Positions 21,144 to 31,742 of a DNA stretch of 64,000 nucleotides are shown piece by piece. Below the pieces are notes generated by a model. That model made no database searches, was not told where the DNA came from, and saw nothing but the letters and a program-made list of their open reading frames with translations. How positions within the stretch are numbered: position 1 is the first letter of the stretch; every line of letters begins with the position of its first letter. Position numbers and translations under genes: made by a program. The DNA lies in assembly GCA_021792255.1 (NCBI GenBank), contig JAJYUZ010000002.1, forward strand, positions 256,001 to 320,000. Direction: 5' to 3'. This DNA is from Thermoplasmata archaeon (GTDB taxonomy: Archaea > Thermoplasmatota > Thermoplasmata > Thermoplasmatales > GCA-001856825).

Positions 21144-22793
21144 TTACATCGGAGGCATTCCGCCCATACCTTCAGGGCCACCCATTCCCGGAGGCATGCC
21201 TCCAGGCGGGCCCTCGCTCTTTGATTTCCTAGATGAGATTACGTCGTCAATCCTCAGTATCATTGTTGCGACTTCGGTTGCGCTTTCGATAGCGTGACTC
21301 TTCACTCTGACCGGCTCTAATACGTTCTTCTTGAAGAGATCGCCGACAGTTCCGTCCATCGCATCAATTCCCACATTCTTGTTTCCTGTCTGGTGTTCCG
21401 ATCTCAGTTTGAGCAGCGAATCAATTGGATCCATACCTGCGTTTTCAGCCAGAGTTCTAGGGACTATCTCGAGTGCATTTGCGAATGTTTCAATGGCCAG
21501 CTGCTCTCTTCCGCCCACAGTCGGGGCATACTTCTTTAGTTGATACGCTAGCTCTGCCTCTATCGCTCCTCCACCCGTCACAAAAGATTGATCCTCAATT
21601 GCCACACCTACTACCTTGAGTGCGTCGTGGAGTGCCCTTTCAACTTCGTCTATAGTGTGCTGCGTCCCTCCCCTTATAAGAATTGAAACCGCTTTAGGAT
21701 ACTTGCATCCGGTGATGAAAGTCAACTTGTCGTCCCCAATCTTTCTCTCCTCGGTCTTCTCTGCGTTTCCCAGATCTTTCGAAGTAAGATCATCAAGATT
21801 TGTAACGATCTTTGCCCCAGTTGCTTTTGCAATCTTTTCCATATCGCTCTTCTTGACTCTCCTGACCGCATATATGCCTTCCTTTGCAAGGAAGTGCTGT
21901 GCAAGATCGTCAACTCCCTTCTGGCTCATTAGAACGTTTGCGCCAGACTTCTTGACTTTATCTACCATCGCCCTGAGGGTTTCTTCTTCTTGGTCGAGGA
22001 ATGCCTGAATCTTGGATGGATCCGTAATTTGAACCTTGGCATCGATCTCAGTTTTCTTGATTTCCAGACCGGAATCGATAAGTGCTATCTTAGAGCTCTT
22101 AACTTCATTCGGCATTCTCGGATGAACCTTTTCTTTGTCTATGACAACTCCTTCTATTAGCTCAGAATCTGTGATTCCTCCCCCGAACTTTTTCTGGATG
22201 AGTATGTTGTCAACATCCACAATCTTTTTTCCGTCTCTCTCTTCGACGATACTCTTGACAGCCTTCATTGCCATCTTTGCAAGAAAATCGGTCACACCAC
22301 CAACGTTCTTTCCTGTCATAGCGGTCAGTGCAACGTTCTTAAGAACTTCATCACTAATTTTCTTCTCAGATATGCTAGACAGAATCTCAGCGGTCTTATT
22401 GGACGCCAACTTATATCCGTTGGCTATGACGGTTGGATGGACGTTCTGATCTAGTAATAGCTCAGCCTGTTTCAGTAATTCTCCGGCAATAACCACTGCA
22501 GTAGTCGTACCATCTCCCACTTCTTGATCCTGTCCTTTTGCAATTTCAATAATCATTTTTGCGGTGGGATGATCGACATCCATCTGCTTCATTATGGTAG
22601 CCCCATCATTAGATATGGTAATATCTCCCAGCGAATCTACTAACATCTTGTCCATTCCTTTCGGGCCAAGTGCCGATTTGACTGTATCTGCAATAGCCTT
22701 GGCGGCCTCAATATTATTTCTTTGAGCATCTTTTCCAGATTCCCTGGTCGAACCTTCTTTCAAAACTAGGATAGGGATTTGTCCCGATAACAT
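21144..22793 (-). CDS. thsA: Thermosome (group II chaperonin) subunit
   Basis: LGPKGMDKML, NDGATI, GDGTTT, GGGAIE and GGM-rich tail; alpha versus beta assignment tentative. Confidence 0.95.
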   Translation of the reverse strand: MLSGQIPILVLKEGSTRESGKDAQRNNIEAAKAIADTVKSALGPKGMDKMLVDSLGDITISNDGATIMKQMDVDHPTAKMIIEIAKGQDQEVGDGTTTAVVIAGELLKQAELLLDQNVHPTVIANGYKLASNKTAEILSSISEKKISDEVLKNVALTAMTGKNVGGVTDFLAKMAMKAVKSIVEERDGKKIVDVDNILIQKKFGGGITDSELIEGVVIDKEKVHPRMPNEVKSSKIALIDSGLEIKKTEIDAKVQITDPSKIQAFLDQEEETLRAMVDKVKKSGANVLMSQKGVDDLAQHFLAKEGIYAVRRVKKSDMEKIAKATGAKIVTNLDDLTSKDLGNAEKTEERKIGDDKLTFITGCKYPKAVSILIRGGTQHTIDEVERALHDALKVVGVAIEDQSFVTGGGAIEAELAYQLKKYAPTVGGREQLAIETFANALEIVPRTLAENAGMDPIDSLLKLRSEHQTGNKNVGIDAMDGTVGDLFKKNVLEPVRVKSHAIESATEVATMILRIDDVISSRKSKSEGPPGGMPPGMGGPEGMGGMPPM

Positions 22794-23039: not shown

Positions 23040-23432
23040 TCATGACTTCGAACTTAGAGTATGTTCCTTGGCCCTCACTAAATGTTTCAGTTTTATGAAA
23101 TATAATATAGCAGTCAGTATACTGCCGACAATCATAGATATCTGAAATGCAGCCATAAAATGCTCTCCACCTACTACTTGTGGTGTATCGAAAATTTTGG
23201 GGTTTCCGTTGTAGATCACGGGAAGCTCCCAATAAGCATGGAAATATGTCTCAAGAATGTAATTCACTCCTGGAAGATAGCTGTAATGAGGAGGGCCTAA
23301 CCCAGTTGTATAGACGAAGTCCCACAGTGCCACCAGATAGTACAAGATAGCTCCCTCTACGACTGCAAAGATAACAGTAACACTTACTATTTTATGAGAG
23401 CTTTTCATAGTGTCAAGAGCCTGAGCTCCCAT
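23040..23432 (-). CDS. Small membrane protein downstream of the G1 peptidase
   Basis: Two TM segments around an aromatic-rich loop; overlaps the peptidase stop. Confidence 0.65.
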   Translation of the reverse strand: MGAQALDTMKSSHKIVSVTVIFAVVEGAILYYLVALWDFVYTTGLGPPHYSYLPGVNYILETYFHAYWELPVIYNGNPKIFDTPQVVGGEHFMAAFQISMIVGSILTAILYFIKLKHLVRAKEHTLSSKS

Positions 23433-24711
23433 ATAAGTTATACTTGGAGTTTACCCATGTCATATTCGGTTCCATATATCCGCTTTGAGTCGTGATTGCA
23501 TCATTTATGTTTTGATTCACATTTCCCCACGATTGATTTAGTATGTATTTGTTGTAATATCCATTGTTCAGCAATGTGTTAAGGTTGCTATAGCCATTAA
23601 TAGTCAGGACTGATGGTGAAACAAAGGTAACTGCAGGACTAAATACGGCCAGTTGTGAGATTACATAGATCCCAGATCCGGCTTGATCCGTTTCCGGTGT
23701 TTCTATAATATACTGTGCATACTTAGGCGAATTGTAATATGGAGTGGTAACAGTGTAGGTGTAATAATTGTTCAGAGTAATAGCGACATATGTCGCGATA
23801 TCATTCGAATTGTAGACTATTGAAAATTCTATGCTTGTTCCACTTGAAGGAGCTGGCATTCCAGGATACCCCCCGGAGTAGGCAGGCGATGTTCCATTAG
23901 ACCAAGTCTGGTACCATATAGTATATGCACCCCAGTTATATCCTCCAGTCCATGAATCATACCAGAAGATTCTTTGGAATCCCGTTTGTACTATGTTTGT
24001 AGCATTAGAATTGCTTGGATCGCTGCCTCCAACATATGGAGAGATGCCGATCCATCCGTTCATTGCTTCATTATATCCCGATGGATGGGAAGAAAGTGTT
24101 ATAGAAGGGATCGTAAGGGAAGCAGTATTCTGTGTTATAGAATAACTTGGATCGTAACACTCATATCCAGCCCAGTTTTCGTTGTATTGGGTGGTTGAAG
24201 AGTATACAATTGGCCCCACTGAGATTTCTGGACCGTAGACTGTCTCATTCAAAGAGGAGTATCCGTAGGTATAACAAGTCTGATTTACGTTCCCTTGTAC
24301 AGTCATAACAAGATAAACGTTGTAACTTTGGTTCACAAAGTCATAGCTTTCTCCTTGAGTAAAGTAGATTTCATTATACTGTTCGTAGGAATTATAACCT
24401 TCCTGAAAGACGGCGCTATTCTCGATGTCGTGAAGAGCTTCTATAGAATCTCTCTCCAACGCACTAAGGGAATTGCTATATTTGAAATTCCACTCGTGAC
24501 TTACTGCCACTTCTTCTATTGCCAGTACACTAGAATTTGTAACGCCATCAGAAAGCGAATTGAAATTCAGTAGCGCATTGTAAGAAGTTGAATGTAGCCC
24601 ACCCTGTACACCTTCGGTACTGCCGAGCAATGAAACATTGACAGAAAGCATGACTAAAGAAATAAAAATGCTTATCATCACTTTCTTCTTGAAATTTTTC
24701 ATATTATCCAT
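23413..24711 (-). CDS. Secreted glutamic peptidase (G1/eqolisin, Peptidase_A4-like) with prodomain
   Basis: Signal/anchor peptide, NENWAGY, WIGI, IVQTG (catalytic Q), AQYIIETP (catalytic E); many N-x-S/T sequons. Confidence 0.75.
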   Translation of the reverse strand: MDNMKNFKKKVMISIFISLVMLSVNVSLLGSTEGVQGGLHSTSYNALLNFNSLSDGVTNSSVLAIEEVAVSHEWNFKYSNSLSALERDSIEALHDIENSAVFQEGYNSYEQYNEIYFTQGESYDFVNQSYNVYLVMTVQGNVNQTCYTYGYSSLNETVYGPEISVGPIVYSSTTQYNENWAGYECYDPSYSITQNTASLTIPSITLSSHPSGYNEAMNGWIGISPYVGGSDPSNSNATNIVQTGFQRIFWYDSWTGGYNWGAYTIWYQTWSNGTSPAYSGGYPGMPAPSSGTSIEFSIVYNSNDIATYVAITLNNYYTYTVTTPYYNSPKYAQYIIETPETDQAGSGIYVISQLAVFSPAVTFVSPSVLTINGYSNLNTLLNNGYYNKYILNQSWGNVNQNINDAITTQSGYMEPNMTWVNSKYNLYGSSGS

Positions 24712-25195: not shown

Positions 25196-27047
25196 TCAGG
25201 TCTTTATGTCTAGTAAGAAGCCGTTATCTATGAAATCATTAACCCCGTTTGTCACCACATCAAACACTTTGATTTGTTTTTCGACCATACTCACGGTAGA
25301 AACGTTAACCCAAGTGTTATTTACTGGATTGAACAGTTGATCTCCAACAGTGAGATTTTCAGGGTTTTTCAGCCAACCCGTAAAGGTGGAGTTTCTGATG
25401 TAAATGGGTTGATCAGTTGGGGTCAATAACAATGCGCCGCCATTTACGATTACCTCTTGAGATACTTCTGTCTTGTTGTTAAATAGAAGAGTTCCTATGA
25501 ACATACTTCCATTTTGAAGATTATACTCTTCAACTTTTCCCCCCTGTTTCAGGTCTTGAATTGGTATATAACCGTTTGGCGTCAGGATTAGACTTCCCCA
25601 GGCAACACAGCCTCCTCCAGAAGTAGAGACATCAACATAGAATTGACTTTGTGTGACGGAATAGTCATCAGTTACCGACATTGTAAGTCGATAACTTCCA
25701 GTGCTTGCACTACTCGGAACCTCAATATTGACGTAGAAAGAGAATGGCGGAGACCCGCTTGAAGGCACAAAGCCATAAGTCCAGCCATTAGGGAGGTTTA
25801 CCATACTGAGAAAGACATCACTGCCTCCACTATACGCCTGGTAGGTATTTCCATATATCTCGACGCCTGAGCCAGGAGAGACAGCTGTAGAACCTAGGTA
25901 GCCCGCGCCAAGATCCACTCCGATAGTGGACAAGAACCATTCATTGGCAATAGTTACATCGTTTCCGCTCGTTAGGACTCTAGTTGTGATATTTGATGGC
26001 AGCGGACCCGTAGAAAAGGCTGACCAACCAGATTCCGTATTCCCAGTAAAATTAAAGTTCCAATACGGCCAGTACTGAGTTGTGGTATCGTACACCTCTT
26101 CCCAGTCCGTGTAATCATAATATCCATCATACGTTGACTGTGCTACGAATTCAGTCCCTCCTGTATGATACCACTTTATAAAGATAGGATAGGGATTTAC
26201 GCCTTGTCCTGTGTATGCTGAAAACTCTACTGTGCCATTGCTATTCGTGCTCATTACAAAGGTATAATATTGGTTTTCTTCAAGGTTGTAAGCGTCAGGA
26301 TTGTAGACATAAGTTTGATTGGTCCATCCAACGGACCAAGTTAGCCCCCAAGAACCATAATCTCCAGAGAAACCAATCTGGTCATACGCATTGCTGTTAT
26401 CCCAAATGGAGAGGATTACATAATAGAAATCTGTTGGGGCCTGAATTCGATTCTGGGGTTAATATGGTGACCTGTACCTGAGTGAGCGTGGTTGAACCTC
26501 CCCATGATGCCCCTTCCACATATGAAACATTGGAAGAGTATCTAGGAGGAAAAGAGGCAGACGGAAAGCTGGCATTACTAGACACCGAAACTTTGTGCAT
26601 GGTAGGAGGAGGTAGGTTTCCGCTGTACGTACTGGGCGATGTGATATAATACTTGATAATAAGTAAAGTTACTTCTTTAGTACCTGACCATTCAATACCG
26701 ACGTAATTGTCTGGAGAGAGCCAAGTCTTAAGAGATGGGCTCGGTATACCACTGATGGATATAGAATAATTTGTTCCATTCGTTTCAACCACCCAACCCT
26801 TCAATCCCGTACCTGCAGGAGAATATAGGTTGACTCCAAATAATGTAAAACTCACAAAGTGAAAGATGAAAGTTTGTGTGGAAGTGGTATTCCCTCCGAG
26901 GAAAGATAATGCAAGAGTTACATTTTCAGAAAAATAGTTATTGAGATTCGGAGTGGCCCGATCGTTCGAATAAAGCGCTAAGCTCATAGAAGACGTTGCA
27001 GTTATAATAGAAACTATTATCACAAGACTTTTTAAGTTCATGTTCAA
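25196..27047 (-). pseudogene. Secreted G1-like protein with C-terminal Hint domain, split by a +1 frameshift near 26437
   Basis: ORF 26397-27047 carries the signal peptide. The frame of ORF 25196-26254 stays open upstream to 26458 (PTDFYYVILSIWDNSNAYDQIGFSGDYGSWGLTWS). Removing one C from GGCCCCAAC gives a ~616-aa protein. Hint domain 25199-25609 follows TSGGG|C. Confidence 0.75.
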
Positions 27048-27085
27048 ACATCTCCTGCTTTAAATGAGTTGAACACATTTTACCG

Positions 27086-27106
27086 TTTCCCAGACAGTCT
27101 GGGAAA
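27086..27106. promoter_or_regulatory. Palindromic operator, copy 1
   Basis: TTTCCCAGAC-A-GTCTGGGAAA (perfect 10-bp arms) between divergent genes, directly before TATA-like ttaaata. Confidence 0.8.
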
Positions 27107-27137
27107 TCATTAAATACGGTTTATTTCTGGTATAGTT

Positions 27138-27668
27138 GTGAGGAAGGACGGCCTAGTCTTGGTTATCACGATAGGTATCTCTCTTGCGAACTCCATATTC
27201 TCAATAGTTTTCGTTTTGCTAATTCTCACTTCAAATATTCCACCAGTTAAGGGGTCGCCTGGAATGGTAAAGGTACCTGGTTATTCAGTTGCAGCAATTC
27301 CAATTTCAACTGCGGCACTTGGTTGGTTAATTATCTGCTATGAATTGATATCGCATAGAAAGAACGATATTTCGAAGATTCTGAGGAAAAGACTATCAGA
27401 AAAATGGGATAACCGAGCACTGTACGATGCATTTAGGGGGAGGGGCGGACCGAGAAGGCTTTCAATAATGGAGAGCTTGGGTACACCGAAGATGAGAAAT
27501 GAAATAGCCCAGCTCACTGGCACTGACTGGAAAGAGGTCGATAGGAATATAAGAATTCTTGAGTCAATTGATTTAGTAAGAATACAATACAACCACGGCA
27601 CGGTATCAGTATACGAATTAACTGGTAAAGGAAAAGAGTTCCTGAACCTTGTCGAAACAGAGATTTAG
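27138..27668 (+). CDS. Membrane-anchored (2 TM) ArsR-like wHTH regulator
   Basis: Two hydrophobic helices, then FRGRGGPRRLSIMESL..PKMRNEIAQLTGTDWKEVDRNIRILES..LV...YELTGKG. Confidence 0.8.
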   Translation: MRKDGLVLVITIGISLANSIFSIVFVLLILTSNIPPVKGSPGMVKVPGYSVAAIPISTAALGWLIICYELISHRKNDISKILRKRLSEKWDNRALYDAFRGRGGPRRLSIMESLGTPKMRNEIAQLTGTDWKEVDRNIRILESIDLVRIQYNHGTVSVYELTGKGKEFLNLVETEI

Positions 27669-27909
27669 GCTCGGGCGTTTCGTTAAGGGGTTTCGCACGC
27701 TACTCTGTCACCTCCATTTGTTCGCTTTGAATGTACATTGTTGTAAGGGCCCAAGTGCAAGTCTTATGATAATCTAGACAACGGAGGATCTTTAGGTACT
27801 GCGCAACATACTTCTCTATTACCGTATCTTAATACAAACTTACTCAGCTCTTATCTCATAAGTTGATTTCCTATTAAATTAAGGGTGATACATGTCACAC
27901 CCGAAACAG

Positions 27910-27958
27910 GGTTCTGTTAACTTGCTGGATGCTGGACATGGTTGTTAATTATCGGATG
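27910..27958 (+). repeat. Degenerate 49-bp direct repeat, copy 2 (possible IS end relic)
   Basis: ggttctgttaacttgctggatgctggacatggttgttaattatcggatg matches 22849-22897. Confidence 0.5.
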
Positions 27959-28338
27959 CTACCAAAGACATTAAAATTCGGATCTTAACCATAGAAACTA
28001 AGACAAGGCACTGGTTTAAATCATCAAAGATGTTTTGATTTTTAGACCAATTTTAAGAAAGGCAAATAATGAGCTCATCAGAAAGAGACCAATTTCTAAA
28101 GAAGAGTGATTCGTTGGTTTTGGCAGAGTTAGGAATATCAGCCTATAGGTCCCTAGTATTTACCGTCGTAAATCTCTCAATCACTATTTCAACAGCAAAG
28201 TCTTCACTGATGACTGGAACTGCGACAACATTTCTAACCATTCCTCTCGTATTCGATTTACTTGTTATTTCCTTTTGACGAGCACTAAGAGAGATAATTA
28301 GACTGAATGCTAAAACTGATTGATTTCTTCTTGTTGGC

Positions 28339-28650
28339 TTAACTGTAGCTAATTCTGCGATGTATCACTAGGACTACACCAGTTGCAGGGAGCAGGAATA
28401 TCAAGAAATCTAAAAATAATGCGAGAAAATCTATAACCCCTATGGTAAAGATAGCGTGATTGCCTTGATAAATTCCCCAAGCATAAGGAAAAGGAAAACC
28501 TCTCTGCCAGGTTGTCCAGAGAATCCCGGCTGTATGAACTACTTTAAAGTAGAGATAGCTGAGCAATGTTAGTCCCACTGAGATTAGAACAGAATATATG
28601 GTCAGCAAGAATGCCCTCCTATACTCTGTTTTTATCATTTTAACCTCCAC
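28339..28650 (-). CDS. Small membrane protein downstream of the S53-Hint gene
   Basis: TM, then RGFPFPY loop, then TM; Shine-Dalgarno-like AGGAGG just upstream. Confidence 0.7.
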   Translation of the reverse strand: MEVKMIKTEYRRAFLLTIYSVLISVGLTLLSYLYFKVVHTAGILWTTWQRGFPFPYAWGIYQGNHAIFTIGVIDFLALFLDFLIFLLPATGVVLVIHRRISYS

Positions 28651-28665
28651 GCCTCCTTTAATCTC

Positions 28666-30894
28666 TCAAGTCTTCACATCCAAAAGTATTCCATTAGCAA
28701 TGTAGCTGCTTCTGAGATATCCATCTTGGTAGAACAATTTGGACCCTTGGATGTCATAAACAGTGAAATTTCCATTGGTCATCTGTATTGAAGTGACTTG
28801 TATCCAAGTGTTATTTAAAGGATCAAATATGGCGTCTGATGTATTCAGATAACCGACCATTATCCATTCTACTGTTCCGTTTGAAAGTTTTACATAGATG
28901 GGTTGATCGCGTGCACCTGAAACGAACAGTAATCCGTTATCAATATTGATTATTGAATTTACGTTTGTGACATTAATTTCAGTAACTTCCTCTTCAACAA
29001 AGTTGCCTCCGATTGGATCATAGGAAAGTATTTGATCTCCCACTTTTAGATCTTGAACTTGGATGGTCTTGTTCAAAGAAGTCTGAATAAGAGTTCCATT
29101 CAAAACACAACCGCCACCACCTCCACTTGAGGTATAATAGTTGCGAAGGGCTTGAACAAAATTATATGCATTAACGCTGCCAATGCCAGTAACATAATCC
29201 CATCCGCTTCCCGCCGACATTCCGTTATTTCCAGTTGTTATGTCCGTGTATGCTCCTGACGAGTAGCCTATGCTGTAAATCCCTTTATTTATGAAACCGT
29301 AAACATCCCCCGTCCCATTGAGGTAAGTATCAGCTATTATACCTGCCATCATTGGAGTAGCGTAACTAGTACCATCTACACCGCCATAGAAGGTGCCATC
29401 GAAGTATACCACGATAGATGGCGCCGCGGCAAAAGAGATGTCCGGAATGTCTCTGTACCCATTGTTAGGCGCAACGCCACTTTGGTATGAAGGTTGGGAG
29501 AATATGGGATTATTAGTCACGTATCCTCTTCCACTTCCACTCCAGCCACTTTGGCCGCTGATATCTGAACTCGTCAAAGATAAAGTTACACCTCCAACTG
29601 CTATTGAGTTAGGGTCCAATGCAACCATATCTATGTTATTGCCACTTGACGAGTATCCATTGTCTCCTGTGGCAGCCACAATCGTAATTCCTTCAGTAGT
29701 TGCCTGAGCAAGAAAATCATGGATATTATCAACTTCGCTAGTACTTATGGAGTTGTAAGTTGGCGCAATGCTAAAGCTCATCACAACGGGAACTAAAGTA
29801 TTGACCATATAACTAAGCTCTTGATCAAATTCGTATTCGAATCCAGTATCCCCTCCAGATGGAGCGCTATAAATGACATCGTCGATAGTGGCGCCTGGAG
29901 CAATAGTACCTGCCCACTCAACGTCAAGAGTCTCCTCTAGACTAGCTCGATTATTCCCCCACGGTGGTAGCCCTCCTCCACCGATTATTATTTGCGTATC
30001 GGATGGATAATAACTCTGACCATTGTAGGTGTATTTTATGTTGTAATGTTCCCAGAAATTTTGGGGATCTGTCCCGTAATACCTCCAGTCAGGATAACCT
30101 ATCAATCCAATTGTTATCCACTTTCCATCATACCCATTTTGTAATAAAGGAGTAATATTGAAGTATGGGTTTATATCATAGGGGTTTGCCGTTAGCACTG
30201 TCTGTCCTGGTAAGCCCCCATAGACTTGATCCCACTCAGTATAAACAAATGGAGTATTATTTACTAACTCAGCTCCGTAATCGTTTAGACCACTGATTGT
30301 AGTTATCTCGTTGACTATGTTGTTTGGAATAATGGGATCATTGGAATTTGCATAAAAGTAGGTTCCATTGAGTTCATAATTGATCAAGGTAATTCTCAAT
30401 AATTGTTCCACGAATCCAGCTGTCTCTTCAAAGGAGATTTCTCTTCCGTTAGAGAAATTCATTTCTTTCACTCCAGAAGAACTCAGCCAGTCCTCCACAG
30501 AACTTATCGCGCCTGCCATTGGTCCAAATTTTGACATGAACTCAGATGGAGTCAAGAACTTGTGAAAGAGGCTGCTGCTTGTATTTGAAACTAACTGCGA
30601 ATAACTCGTTGCTGCAGAAATATCAATCGAAAGATATATTTCCAAAGATAGTTCAGTAGTATTGTTCAGTTGAGATAGGTCCATAGCTTGGGAAAGAAAA
30701 GGAAGAGTATCATTCAATGGCACTTCTAGTACCTCGTTTACCATGGGTGGGGTGCTTGTTCCGTCTAAATAGGATATCCCAGCTATTGAGGAGCTAGATA
30801 ACAAACTGAAAGAAATCGCTGATACGAGAACAAAAAGTCCGTACTTTTCAAAAATAGCTTTTACTAGGACTCTGAAATTCATACTTTGTATCAT
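28666..30894 (-). CDS. Secreted S53 (sedolisin/kumamolisin) peptidase with prodomain and C-terminal Hint domain
   Basis: Prodomain FLTPSEFMSKFGP; catalytic EETLD, GDNG and GTSYATP; Ca site GWDYVTGIGS; SSGGGGG|CVLNGT Hint at 28669-29109 ending YIANGILLDVKT. Confidence 0.9.
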   Translation of the reverse strand: MIQSMNFRVLVKAIFEKYGLFVLVSAISFSLLSSSSIAGISYLDGTSTPPMVNEVLEVPLNDTLPFLSQAMDLSQLNNTTELSLEIYLSIDISAATSYSQLVSNTSSSLFHKFLTPSEFMSKFGPMAGAISSVEDWLSSSGVKEMNFSNGREISFEETAGFVEQLLRITLINYELNGTYFYANSNDPIIPNNIVNEITTISGLNDYGAELVNNTPFVYTEWDQVYGGLPGQTVLTANPYDINPYFNITPLLQNGYDGKWITIGLIGYPDWRYYGTDPQNFWEHYNIKYTYNGQSYYPSDTQIIIGGGGLPPWGNNRASLEETLDVEWAGTIAPGATIDDVIYSAPSGGDTGFEYEFDQELSYMVNTLVPVVMSFSIAPTYNSISTSEVDNIHDFLAQATTEGITIVAATGDNGYSSSGNNIDMVALDPNSIAVGGVTLSLTSSDISGQSGWSGSGRGYVTNNPIFSQPSYQSGVAPNNGYRDIPDISFAAAPSIVVYFDGTFYGGVDGTSYATPMMAGIIADTYLNGTGDVYGFINKGIYSIGYSSGAYTDITTGNNGMSAGSGWDYVTGIGSVNAYNFVQALRNYYTSSGGGGGCVLNGTLIQTSLNKTIQVQDLKVGDQILSYDPIGGNFVEEEVTEINVTNVNSIINIDNGLLFVSGARDQPIYVKLSNGTVEWIMVGYLNTSDAIFDPLNNTWIQVTSIQMTNGNFTVYDIQGSKLFYQDGYLRSSYIANGILLDVKT

Positions 30895-30914
30895 GGCATC
30901 CAGTTCATTTATTG

Positions 30915-30937
30915 ATTTCCCAGAATTTCTGGGAAAT
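30915..30937. promoter_or_regulatory. Palindromic operator, copy 2
   Basis: ATTTCCCAGAA-T-TTCTGGGAAAT (perfect 11-bp arms), followed by TATA-like ttatatata. Confidence 0.8.
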
Positions 30938-30968
30938 TGTTATATATAGATTACCGCTAATTTGAGCA

Positions 30969-31742
30969 ATGGGAAAAAGAAACTACGTCATTATTCTTCT
31001 ACTCACGTTATCAATAGTTAGTTCTGCATATTCCGTATTTCTTTTCCTAAGTTCATATTTTTCTCAGTCCATTTTTTTTGTTTATACTTCTAAGGCAATC
31101 CTAGCATATCCATATAACATACTTCCTGTATCCTCCGCAATGTTCGGCTGGGTCTTGTTAAGTTATCAACTGATTTACAATAATAGGAGACATATTGCTA
31201 CAATTATTAGAAAAGAGATTTCTGGTAAGTCAGATGATTGGACTATTTATTATGCCTTTAAGGGCAAAGGAGGTGCAAGGAGACTAACGATAATGGAAGC
31301 CCTAACCTCACCCAGACTGAGGAACGAAGAGGAAATGCTTAGGGAACTAGAACTCCCATACAGAGTCGTGATGCTGAGTTCAGGAGATATGGGTGTCAGA
31401 GATTTCAAGCAGTTAGATCTTGAGGTATTCATGCCCTACCAGGCAAAGTACAGGGAAGTAATGTCCAACGACAACTGTACGGACTGGATATCCAGGAGAT
31501 CTGGCATTAGACTTACTGACGCAGAAGGCAACAAGATCTTCGCTCATACAGTAGACGCAACAGGACTTGCAATTCAACGTACCATCAAGTCTATACTGGA
31601 AGTACACCAGAGGAAAGACGGGACTGTCCGTGTACCTGAGCCCTTGGTGAAGTTTACGGAATTCTCGACCATCAGAACAAGGATAAGAAATAAAGATGTG
31701 TTGACCCTTGATGATCAGCAGTCTTGGGATTCAATTCTTTGA
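30969..31742 (+). pseudogene. Chimera: truncated membrane wHTH regulator fused in frame to a seryl-tRNA synthetase C-terminal fragment
   Basis: N-terminal half parallels 27138-27668 up to RNE. It then reads EEMLRELELPYRV..GDMG..DLEVFMP..YREV.S..NCTD..SRR..HTVDATGLAIQRT..ILE.HQ..DG.V.VPE.L (SerRS motif 3 region). Confidence 0.8.

Follow-up and report, generated by a model that had tools for sequence, protein, structure and literature searches.

This work concerns a 64,000-nucleotide (nt) stretch, hereafter the window, from the genome of a Thermoplasmata archaeon (assembly GCA_021792255.1, contig JAJYUZ010000002.1, positions 256,001 to 320,000), and in it two loci at which a gene for a putatively secreted protein ending in a Hint domain is divergent to a gene for a predicted membrane-associated winged helix-turn-helix (wHTH) regulator, with the same palindromic dyad between them. 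The genome amounts to 1.59 Mb in 11 contigs, the window being located on contig C6, and the stretch is present with full word share in metagenome runs of mine drainage, mine tailings and sediment from three studies. The original prediction, made from the letters of the window, held that regulator, operator and Hint-tagged protease form one system; our comparative analyses indicate that two separate things meet here, namely a C-terminal Hint tag and a genus-local module of regulator and dyad.

Organization of the two loci

At each dyad, the gene on the left (minus strand) encodes a protein with a hydrophobic N-terminus, and the gene on the right (plus strand) a protein with hydrophobic segments. 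Gene A (25196..27047, minus) would encode a secreted passenger with an Ig-like stretch, followed by an SGGG linker (25610..25621, minus, from the translation) directly before the first residue, Cys1, of a domain of 137 amino acids (aa), Hint1 (25199..25609, minus), which ends ...NGFLLDIKT-stop. The gene is split into two open reading frames (ORFs; 26397-27047 and 25196-26254): the intact ortholog from a congener, 614 aa long, matches it with aa 1-205 in one frame and with aa 204-614 in another, and three-frame translation together with this ortholog places a +1 frameshift, a one-base insertion, near 26427..26444 (minus). The sequence is unchanged, with 0 gaps, in contigs of runs X8 (25221-27082) and X9 (25885-27099), the latter not being flagged as a possible source of the assembly, and thus the frameshift belongs to the population and is no accident of a single assembly; contigs of runs X1 and X2 do not cover gene A, which says nothing about its absence there. 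Set against the intact ortholog, the gene A protein has Cys1 as its sole in-frame Cys. A further gene A ortholog in another congener (locus L050, G007:C122, 4104-5458) carries a frameshift elsewhere and its alignment ends at aa 453, before the Hint, which suggests that the gene decayed there independently; the genome in question (76% complete) yielded no Hint.

Gene B (28666..30894, minus) is intact, with its likely start at the Met at 30882 and a database copy of 738 aa. Behind a hydrophobic N-terminus it carries a pro-kumamolisin activation domain (PF09286, E 2e-22, 80.4 bits against a cut-off of 23.5), an S53/S8 catalytic domain (Peptidase_S8, PF00082, E 2.8e-7, 30.6 bits against a cut-off of 21.8), an SSGGGGG linker (29110..29130, minus, from the translation) and the 147-aa Hint2 (28669..29109, minus), which ends ...NGILLDVKT-stop. 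Its passenger is a sedolisin (peptidase S53), as originally proposed, and the sedolisin motifs GTSxAxP and ExxLD were also spotted by eye. Cys1 of Hint2 is the one Cys in the 742 residues of the protein.

The label of G1-like protein given to the gene A passenger was not verified. The motifs YAGS..., YDQxGF and DYEEVY constitute a motif-level resemblance to a G1 peptidase (eqolisin) only, and such an identity (Peptidase_A4, PF01828) was not confirmed by Pfam, the PDB, the structure atlas, homolog search or AlphaFold2 (AF2): the passenger gave no Pfam match, no PDB-sequence match and no usable atlas match, the homolog search returned 10 proteins, and the AF2 model from a 9-row alignment reached a predicted local distance difference test score (pLDDT) of 37. 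Close by, a 432-aa secreted ORF (23413-24711, minus), followed by a 130-aa hydrophobic ORF (23040-23432, minus), holds the motifs NWAGY, VQTGF and YIIE, also reminiscent of G1 peptidases; it gave no Pfam or PDB match and no detectable similarity to gene A.

The claim that one architecture occurs twice stands as regards both dyads, both Hints and the divergent orientation of the regulators; what falls away is its completeness, as each of the two copies is half broken in the window genome, gene A by its frameshift and the second regulator, Reg2, by a cut that removes its recognition helix and wing. Only the first regulator, Reg1, and gene B are intact. The signal peptides ascribed to the passengers are putative, both of them showing a hydrophobic N-terminal segment in hydropathy.

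Directly downstream of gene B lies a gene for a 103-aa hydrophobic protein (28339..28650, minus), for which BLAST detected no homolog at the other Hint loci. Small hydrophobic proteins are also encoded 3' of the Hint gene at L018, L019 and L020, and these are related to each other by BLAST (L018 weakly). A conserved partner gene for the Hint was considered on this basis and rejected: the 103-aa protein of the window is unlike those three, and downstream genes vary among lineages.

The terminal Hint domain and its distribution

In both passengers an oligo-Gly/Cys junction (TSGGG/CVAWG in gene A and SSGGGGG/CVLNG in gene B, the slash preceding Cys1) leads into a Hint that ends the protein, as the original prediction had described; the two domains are 32-34% identical (E 2e-16). 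An alignment of 11 sequences (A3), comprising the two window Hints and nine from relatives, gave an AF2 model with a pLDDT of 92 and a predicted template modelling score of 0.85. The closest structural match in Foldseek was the BUBL BIL2 of Tetrahymena (E 1e-8), next the Clostridium thermocellum BIL, then inteins and Hedgehog (1at0); there were 55 PDB matches at E ≤ 0.001, and each of the 39 matches listed was to a BIL domain, an intein or Hedgehog. Among PDB sequences, the profile matched 2lwy, a BIL, best (E 2.3e-10). The terminal domain is therefore predicted to have the horseshoe all-beta fold of the HINT superfamily.

Three positions are invariant in 11 of 11 sequences of A3: Cys1, a Gln in block B, and the Asp of a V-Y-D motif resembling block F. 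The invariant DQP aligns to the DHP of 2lwy, that is, to the block-B histidine. In HINT domains generally, the His of the block-B TxxH motif stands next to the scissile bond. Judged by alignment, the domain begins with the first-residue nucleophile of HINT domains, Cys1, and has Gln in place of the TxxH histidine. At the other end, the tail NGxLLDxK, followed by 0-4 residues, occupies in the alignment to BIL2 the place of the ...H-N of inteins and the +1 residue: an Asp stands at the penultimate His, a variable residue at the Asn, and a Lys at the position of the +1 nucleophile. Splicing is impossible for these Hints, as had been proposed, because there is neither a terminal Asn nor a C-extein. 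Furthermore, the window Hints hold 4.4-4.8 N-x-S/T sequons per 100 aa, where the median for the genome is 0.47 and its 95th percentile 2.48, a density that fits a domain living outside the cell.

Known Hint models recognize the domain poorly. Hint1 gave matches below threshold (PT-HINT, E 0.02-0.003; Hint_2, E 0.027), and gene B no match to any Pfam Hint model, even below threshold, in the scan of window proteins. Scores were 15.6-18.4 bits for Pretoxin HINT (PF07591, cut-off 27.7), 12.3-21.3 bits for Hint_2 (PF13403, cut-off 28.4) and at most 11.5 bits for the Hedgehog Hint (PF01079, cut-off 29.7), and NCBIfam holds no family for these proteins. The A3 profile was scored against 1.84 billion representatives, and matched 5506 of them at E ≤ 1e-3, a set whose tail will take in other Hint types; the number falls to 923 at E ≤ 1e-10 and to 239 clusters at E ≤ 1e-30. 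These figures indicate that the terminal Hint belongs to a large clade missed by every Pfam Hint model at its curated cut-off.

The last Hint ends at most 12 aa from the C-terminus in 137 of the best 150 matches; of the other 13, seven show tandem arrays of 3-4 Hints, and six are either truncated or contain one Hint, placed internally. Residue statistics were taken from the 131 proteins whose only Hint is terminal. All of them have Cys1 (131/131), and Gly precedes it in 128/131, with at least three Gly among the six residues ahead of Cys1 in 109/131; Cys1 is also the only Cys of the Hint in 109/131. Block B reads [DEN]QP in 126/131 (DQP in 108/131), and 0-4 residues follow the conserved tail Lys in 116/131, 12 proteins being off the tail pattern. 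In an alignment of 87 sequences, Cys1, the block-B Gln, the tail Lys and a Trp are invariant, and conservation includes the tail motif. A second Cys lies 3-8 residues ahead of Cys1 in 13 of the 60 junctions listed (e.g., ...GCGGGG/C) and is absent from both window copies. Disulfide traps have been described for some inteins, and this second Cys could form one. Tandem arrays of 2-4 Hints were seen in P0001, P0002, P0006, P0021, P0031, P0098, P0133 and P0145; in P0001 the tail Lys of one Hint is directly followed by Cys1 of the next, a polyprotein-like arrangement that recalls BUBL loci.

A Pfam survey of the passengers covered 87 full-length members out of 103 eligible ones, most of which gave no match. 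The domains found, which are of extracellular type, were CarboxypepD_reg (13), Thermopsin (5), Flg_new_2 (5), PKD (3), Peptidase_A4 (2), Pro-kumamolisin/S8 (1) and various Ig-like domains. Close Hints sit on different proteins: the nearest relatives of Hint2, at 70% identity, are found on CarboxypepD_reg proteins whose passengers have no similarity to the S53 part, and a relative of Hint1 at 65% identity in a congener is on an unrelated passenger. The portability originally claimed is borne out in this sampling, the terminal Hint behaving as a C-terminal tag on unrelated, putatively secreted passengers.

Hint matches were found in 10 of 60 close relatives, the window genome included (E ≤ 1e-3), and in 28 of 401 genomes of an even sample of the phylum (E ≤ 1e-10). 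The strong ones in the latter fall in the same order and class, and weaker, often tandem matches in very long proteins come from one other family. Several of the Hint copies in relatives are interrupted by stops. A one-contig genome of the same order, G298, carries two members. Close homologs have the source names "Thermoplasmatales archaeon" or "Thermoplasmata archaeon", and archaea so labelled bear the Hint at the very end of putatively exported proteins, past an oligo-Gly linker.

Comparison with known Hint types and possible modes of action

According to passages of a review (PMC7765530), HINT domains comprise Hog, intein and A- and B-type BIL, the BILs being bacterial and located in variable regions of non-conserved proteins. 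Burglin (2008; PMC2362128) adds the Vint type, as well as bacterial proteins that have a signal peptide and end in a Hint-like domain distinct from the rest, and a study by Aravind's group (PMC3417536) derives the Hedgehog Hint from the Hints of polymorphic toxins. The domain described here does not match inteins, Hog or A-type BIL in full. It differs from inteins in having no C-terminal Asn (or Gln/Asp) with a C-extein beginning with Cys, Ser or Thr and no insertion in a conserved host protein; from Hog in that the protein ends 0-4 residues past the Hint, with no sterol-recognition region; and from A-type BIL in the Asp-x-Lys at the aligned His-Asn positions. For B-type BIL the Hint_2 model was used as a stand-in, an assumed equivalence, and the scores stayed below its cut-off.

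The A-type BIL of C. thermocellum (2lwy) shares the HINT fold and the N-terminal Cys and is the best profile match; BILs also sit in non-conserved secreted or surface proteins and self-cleave rather than home, as passages of PMC7765530 have it. It is distinguished by ending in His-Asn, its location inside proteins, its block-B His and its bacterial origin, against LLDxK, the end of the protein, Gln and an archaeal origin here. The BUBL BIL2 of Tetrahymena thermophila (6y75, 6tmm) is the top structural match (template modelling score 0.75-0.78), and the partner on its N-terminal side has a Gly end, which is activated as a thioester and goes into an isopeptide bond with a Lys (PMC8616854, in part). 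Unlike the window Hints, it has His69 and a terminal Asn (the crystallised mutant being C1A-N143A), is cytoplasmic and has ubiquitin-like flanks, whereas Hints of the present clade lack a C-terminal partner and sit on predicted exported enzymes and adhesin-like proteins.

Hedgehog/Hog (1at0, fold E 6.7e-6) is likewise a terminal autoprocessing module past a Gly/Cys junction, on secreted proteins with varied passengers (PMC2362128, in part), but it has TxxH and, past the Hint, the sterol-recognition region (PMC7765530, in part), both absent here. The bacterial C-terminal Hint-like proteins (PMC2362128 and, as cited there, Dassa and Pietrokovski) resemble ours in the C-terminal position and the signal peptides, and are set apart from inteins, Hog and BIL; they differ in their hosts (Myxococcus, Photorhabdus, Serratia and others) and in two conserved upstream Cys, a comparison made by description only. 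Finally, Pretoxin HINT (PF07591), the weak best Pfam match of Hint1, is a self-cleaving Hint of secreted proteins (PMC3417536, in part), but a PT-HINT precedes and releases a toxin domain, and nothing follows the Hint here.

From the fold, the residue conservation, the terminal position and the portability described above, we infer an acyl shift, a cleavage and a fate of the thioester as follows. After export the domain would fold and Cys1 would attack the carbonyl of the preceding Gly, giving an N-to-S acyl shift at Gly/Cys; the thioester would be resolved by water, in the simplest case, or by another nucleophile; and the Hint would be shed, leaving a mature passenger that ends in oligo-Gly. 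We regard Hint-driven cleavage of some kind as probable, and we lean, with less assurance, towards this particular course, in which an acyl shift at Gly/Cys lets the Hint shed itself. By general chemistry, low pH should favour the thioester side of the acyl shift, through protonation of the amine that is set free. Under conditions in which His carries its full proton load, Gln can still act as a hydrogen-bond donor, and this would suit a mine-drainage acidophile secreting acid proteases.

Three observations weigh against self-shedding. Gln stands where inteins have their most conserved catalytic residue, the block-B His, and the penultimate His and terminal Asn are absent, so that the domain may have no chemical activity; the abundance of sequons suggests a domain that persists outside the cell and not a throw-away piece; and the invariant Lys at the position of the intein +1 nucleophile is left unexplained by simple hydrolysis.

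Two other readings were weighed. One, which we consider possible but unlikely, is a transfer like that of Hedgehog or BUBL, in which the Gly thioester would be passed to an acceptor in the envelope (a hydroxyl of the tetraether lipoglycan, an amine, or a Lys of a surface protein), so that secreted enzymes and adhesin-like proteins would be fixed covalently to cells without a surface layer (S-layer). The Lys invariant at the +1-like position and the surface-type nature of the passengers speak for it, as does a Gly/Cys junction of the same form as that of Hedgehog. In the closest structural neighbour, BIL2, moreover, the protein on the N-terminal side becomes bonded through its C-terminus to a Lys, as an isopeptide and ATP-free (PMC8616854, in part), and most Thermoplasmatales are described in passages of PMC12448462 as lacking an S-layer and having a lipoglycan membrane with a disordered glycoprotein layer whose attachment is unexplained. 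Against this, no sterol-recognition-like or acceptor-binding region is present, just 0-4 residues following the conserved Lys; no conserved neighbour gene offers a candidate acceptor, as downstream genes vary by lineage; and at the very low external pH expected in mine drainage, amines would be protonated and, by general chemistry, poor nucleophiles. Carried to its full extent, and by analogy, the terminal Hint might be a sortase- or Hedgehog-like anchor of wall-less archaea that hands the oligo-Gly thioester to lipoglycan or surface protein and builds a covalent glycoprotein coat in place of the S-layer, with Gln for His enabling the chemistry at low pH; taken as a whole, this proposal is just as doubtful.

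The reading in which the Hint has lost catalysis, staying attached as a glycosylated binding, tethering or oligomerisation module of surface proteins, is also unlikely and ranks below the transfer. It would account for the three missing canonical catalytic positions, for the very high sequon density and for conservation beyond the catalytic residues (the invariant Trp and the tail motif). However, a non-catalytic domain would not need Cys1 in every one of the 131 proteins behind a nearly constant Gly (128/131) and a Gly run, nor would it need that Cys to be usually the sole one of the domain (109/131) and, in the S53 protein, of the whole polypeptide; the block-F Asp is also retained, and the loss of the block-B His is reportedly compensated in inteins (Friedel et al., 2019, by its title).

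A genus-restricted regulator and the implications of the Hint clade

Reg1 (27138..27668, plus) is an intact protein of 176 aa. Its two hydrophobic segments span about residues 4-38 and 49-71, and at the C-terminus stands a putative wHTH, for which matches are weak: 15.8 bits for HTH_20 (cut-off 27), 14.9 bits for HTH_45, a match to HVO_A0114, and 24.2 bits for the NCBIfam model SSO5209_fam (cut-off 140). Its orthologs are 91-92% identical. Reg2 is 35% identical to Reg1 over residues 1-121 (E 5e-25), and only its residues 1-120 remain (30969..31328, plus; cut after ...LRNE): homology to the family ends after residue 120, with the same end point against a full-length paralog from another genome, and therefore the recognition helix and the wing are missing. 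In frame with the remnant follows a 138-aa core fragment of a class-II (seryl-like) tRNA synthetase (31329..31742, plus; Pfam tRNA-synt_2b, E 3e-8), which is only 37% identical to the full-length copy of the genome on contig C11 and so is a relic of a second or foreign gene that marks a rearrangement. Of the two wHTH regulators with two transmembrane segments that had been announced, then, Reg1 agrees with the description in its hydrophobic segments and putative wHTH, and Reg2 is cut within its wHTH and fused to this fragment. A 40-nt piece coding for part of the Reg1 wHTH (27524-27563) matches very deep contigs (281-372x) in two runs, presumably from a conserved paralog in more abundant relatives.

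ToxR and CadC are membrane-tethered one-component regulators in which the wHTH is held by transmembrane segments of the same polypeptide. The regulator resembles them in the presumed tethering of a putative DNA-binding wHTH by its own segments. It departs from them in a reversed topology, with two N-terminal hydrophobic segments and a C-terminal wHTH, in an external loop of only about 20 aa, in the sub-threshold ArsR/HTH_20-like character of the wHTH, and in being archaeal and restricted to a genus.

This restriction is marked. Among 60 relatives scanned, 10 of 17 congeners had the regulator, against 0 of 42 genomes from other genera, and a scan of 185,579 species, with one genome each, returned 15 regulator loci, all with titles of Thermoplasmatales, Thermoplasmata or Thermoplasmatota metagenome-assembled genomes, one of them "I-plasma". 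These searches delineate a genus-restricted family with two hydrophobic N-terminal segments and a putative wHTH. A third paralog of the window genome (183 aa, 47% identical; locus L034, G000:C6:336765-337160, 16.8 kb past the end of the window) is directly upstream of a co-directional gene for a 453-aa polytopic membrane protein, which in its sequence resembles an amino-acid permease; the surroundings of this paralog hold neither a Hint gene nor a dyad, only a half-site. The same order, with a co-directional membrane protein of about 450-470 aa, is seen in 9 of the 12 loci listed, and looks like the original context of the family.

The 21-nt dyad TTTCCCAGA-N3-TCTGGGAAA is indeed shared by both loci. 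It occurs with 0 mismatches as TTTCCCAGA-CAG-TCTGGGAAA at 27086..27106 (dyad 1) and as TTTCCCAGA-ATT-TCTGGGAAA at 30916..30936 (dyad 2), against an expectation of 0.02, and 0 of 100 shuffles gave at least two sites. Over the whole genome, its 19-nt core with at most two mismatches returned these two dyads and one 2-mismatch site in the S53 gene, TTCCCAGAAATTTTGGGGA at 30049-30067 within the coding region, which is probably there by chance. Both dyads are flanked on both sides, at 2-3 nt, by A/T-rich TATA-like hexamers read by eye: on the minus strand at 27077..27082 for gene A, 3 nt off the left edge of dyad 1 (with an alternative site at 27059-27065), and at 30908..30913 for gene B, 2 nt off that of dyad 2; on the plus strand TTAAATA at 27110..27116, 22 nt ahead of the GTG start of Reg1, and TTATATATA at 30940..30948, 20 nt ahead of the ATG of Reg2. 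The spacing of 3 nt from the dyad to the regulator's own TATA is conserved at both window loci. A dimer bound to the dyad could thus hinder both divergent promoters, and we infer auto-regulation together with control of the neighbouring secreted protein. With Reg2 cut short and the same half-sites at both loci, it is probably Reg1 that acts on both dyads.

Several points count against this regulatory assignment: just 4 of 7 promoters of permease-linked paralogs carry the half-site TCTGGGAAA, just upstream of a TATA-like box; this 9-mer is commoner in the genome (44 occurrences) than expected from base composition (about 13), so that a lone half-site is weak evidence; and promoter and TATA assignments were made by eye. 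One such half-site, followed by TTTGTATATAG, lies at G000:C11:114433, about 50 nt upstream of the gene for a 202-aa protein with a hydrophobic N-terminus, which may be a further member of the regulon.

The full dyad stands beside the regulator in 3 of the 15 loci of the species scan (L081, L082 and L083). L081 holds an intact ortholog of gene A and L082 has no Hint match; both show the same arrangement as L017 and L050, respectively, and may be the same genomes. At L083 (4070-5504) the full dyad, TTCCCAGAGGTTCTGGGAA, lies between a full-length regulator of 189 aa and a divergent gene for a sequon-rich secreted protein of 270 aa, which has no Hint. Conversely, among 13 Hint loci from 9 relatives, some on short contigs, translated BLAST (tblastn) and dyad searches found regulator and dyad at one, L017, the ortholog of the gene A locus; the expected co-occurrence elsewhere is met with at that locus and is missing from the other 12. 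That regulator, operator and Hint-tagged protease are a co-evolving unit, in which a membrane sensor controls Hint-mediated display, is therefore very unlikely, even though the window holds two such arrangements with identical half-sites and a congener a third, intact one: the regulator is confined to one genus and to Thermoplasmat* titles, it most often precedes a permease-like gene, L083 pairs it and a full dyad with a secreted protein without Hint, 12 of 13 Hint loci do without it, and both window copies are partly decayed.

As a neighbouring feature, a thermosome-like (group II chaperonin) subunit gene, read from its translation, is placed just upstream of the region (21144-22793, minus).

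A literature search, from which subscription journals were largely excluded, found no report linking a Hint to Thermoplasmata, thermopsin or sedolisin, nor of an archaeal terminal Hint, and a paper on the thermopsin family (PMC3842238) makes no mention of intein, Hint or C-terminal. The automatic annotation of GenBank names members "Hint domain-containing protein"; the presence of the Hint is hence already on record, and no record of the clade, of its motif set or of its role came to light. This clade, numerous (239 clusters at E ≤ 1e-30) yet below the cut-off of every Pfam Hint model, would add a further, archaeal HINT type with Gln for the block-B His and an Asp-x-Lys tail. If the proposed mechanism is true, an N-to-S acyl shift can run without the "essential" histidine, and should the domain cleave at low pH, protein engineering would gain from it a natural self-cleaving tag that works in acid. 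For the organisms themselves, the terminal Hint may bear on how Thermoplasmatales without an S-layer (as described in passages of PMC12448462) hold or release their surface glycoproteins and acid proteases.

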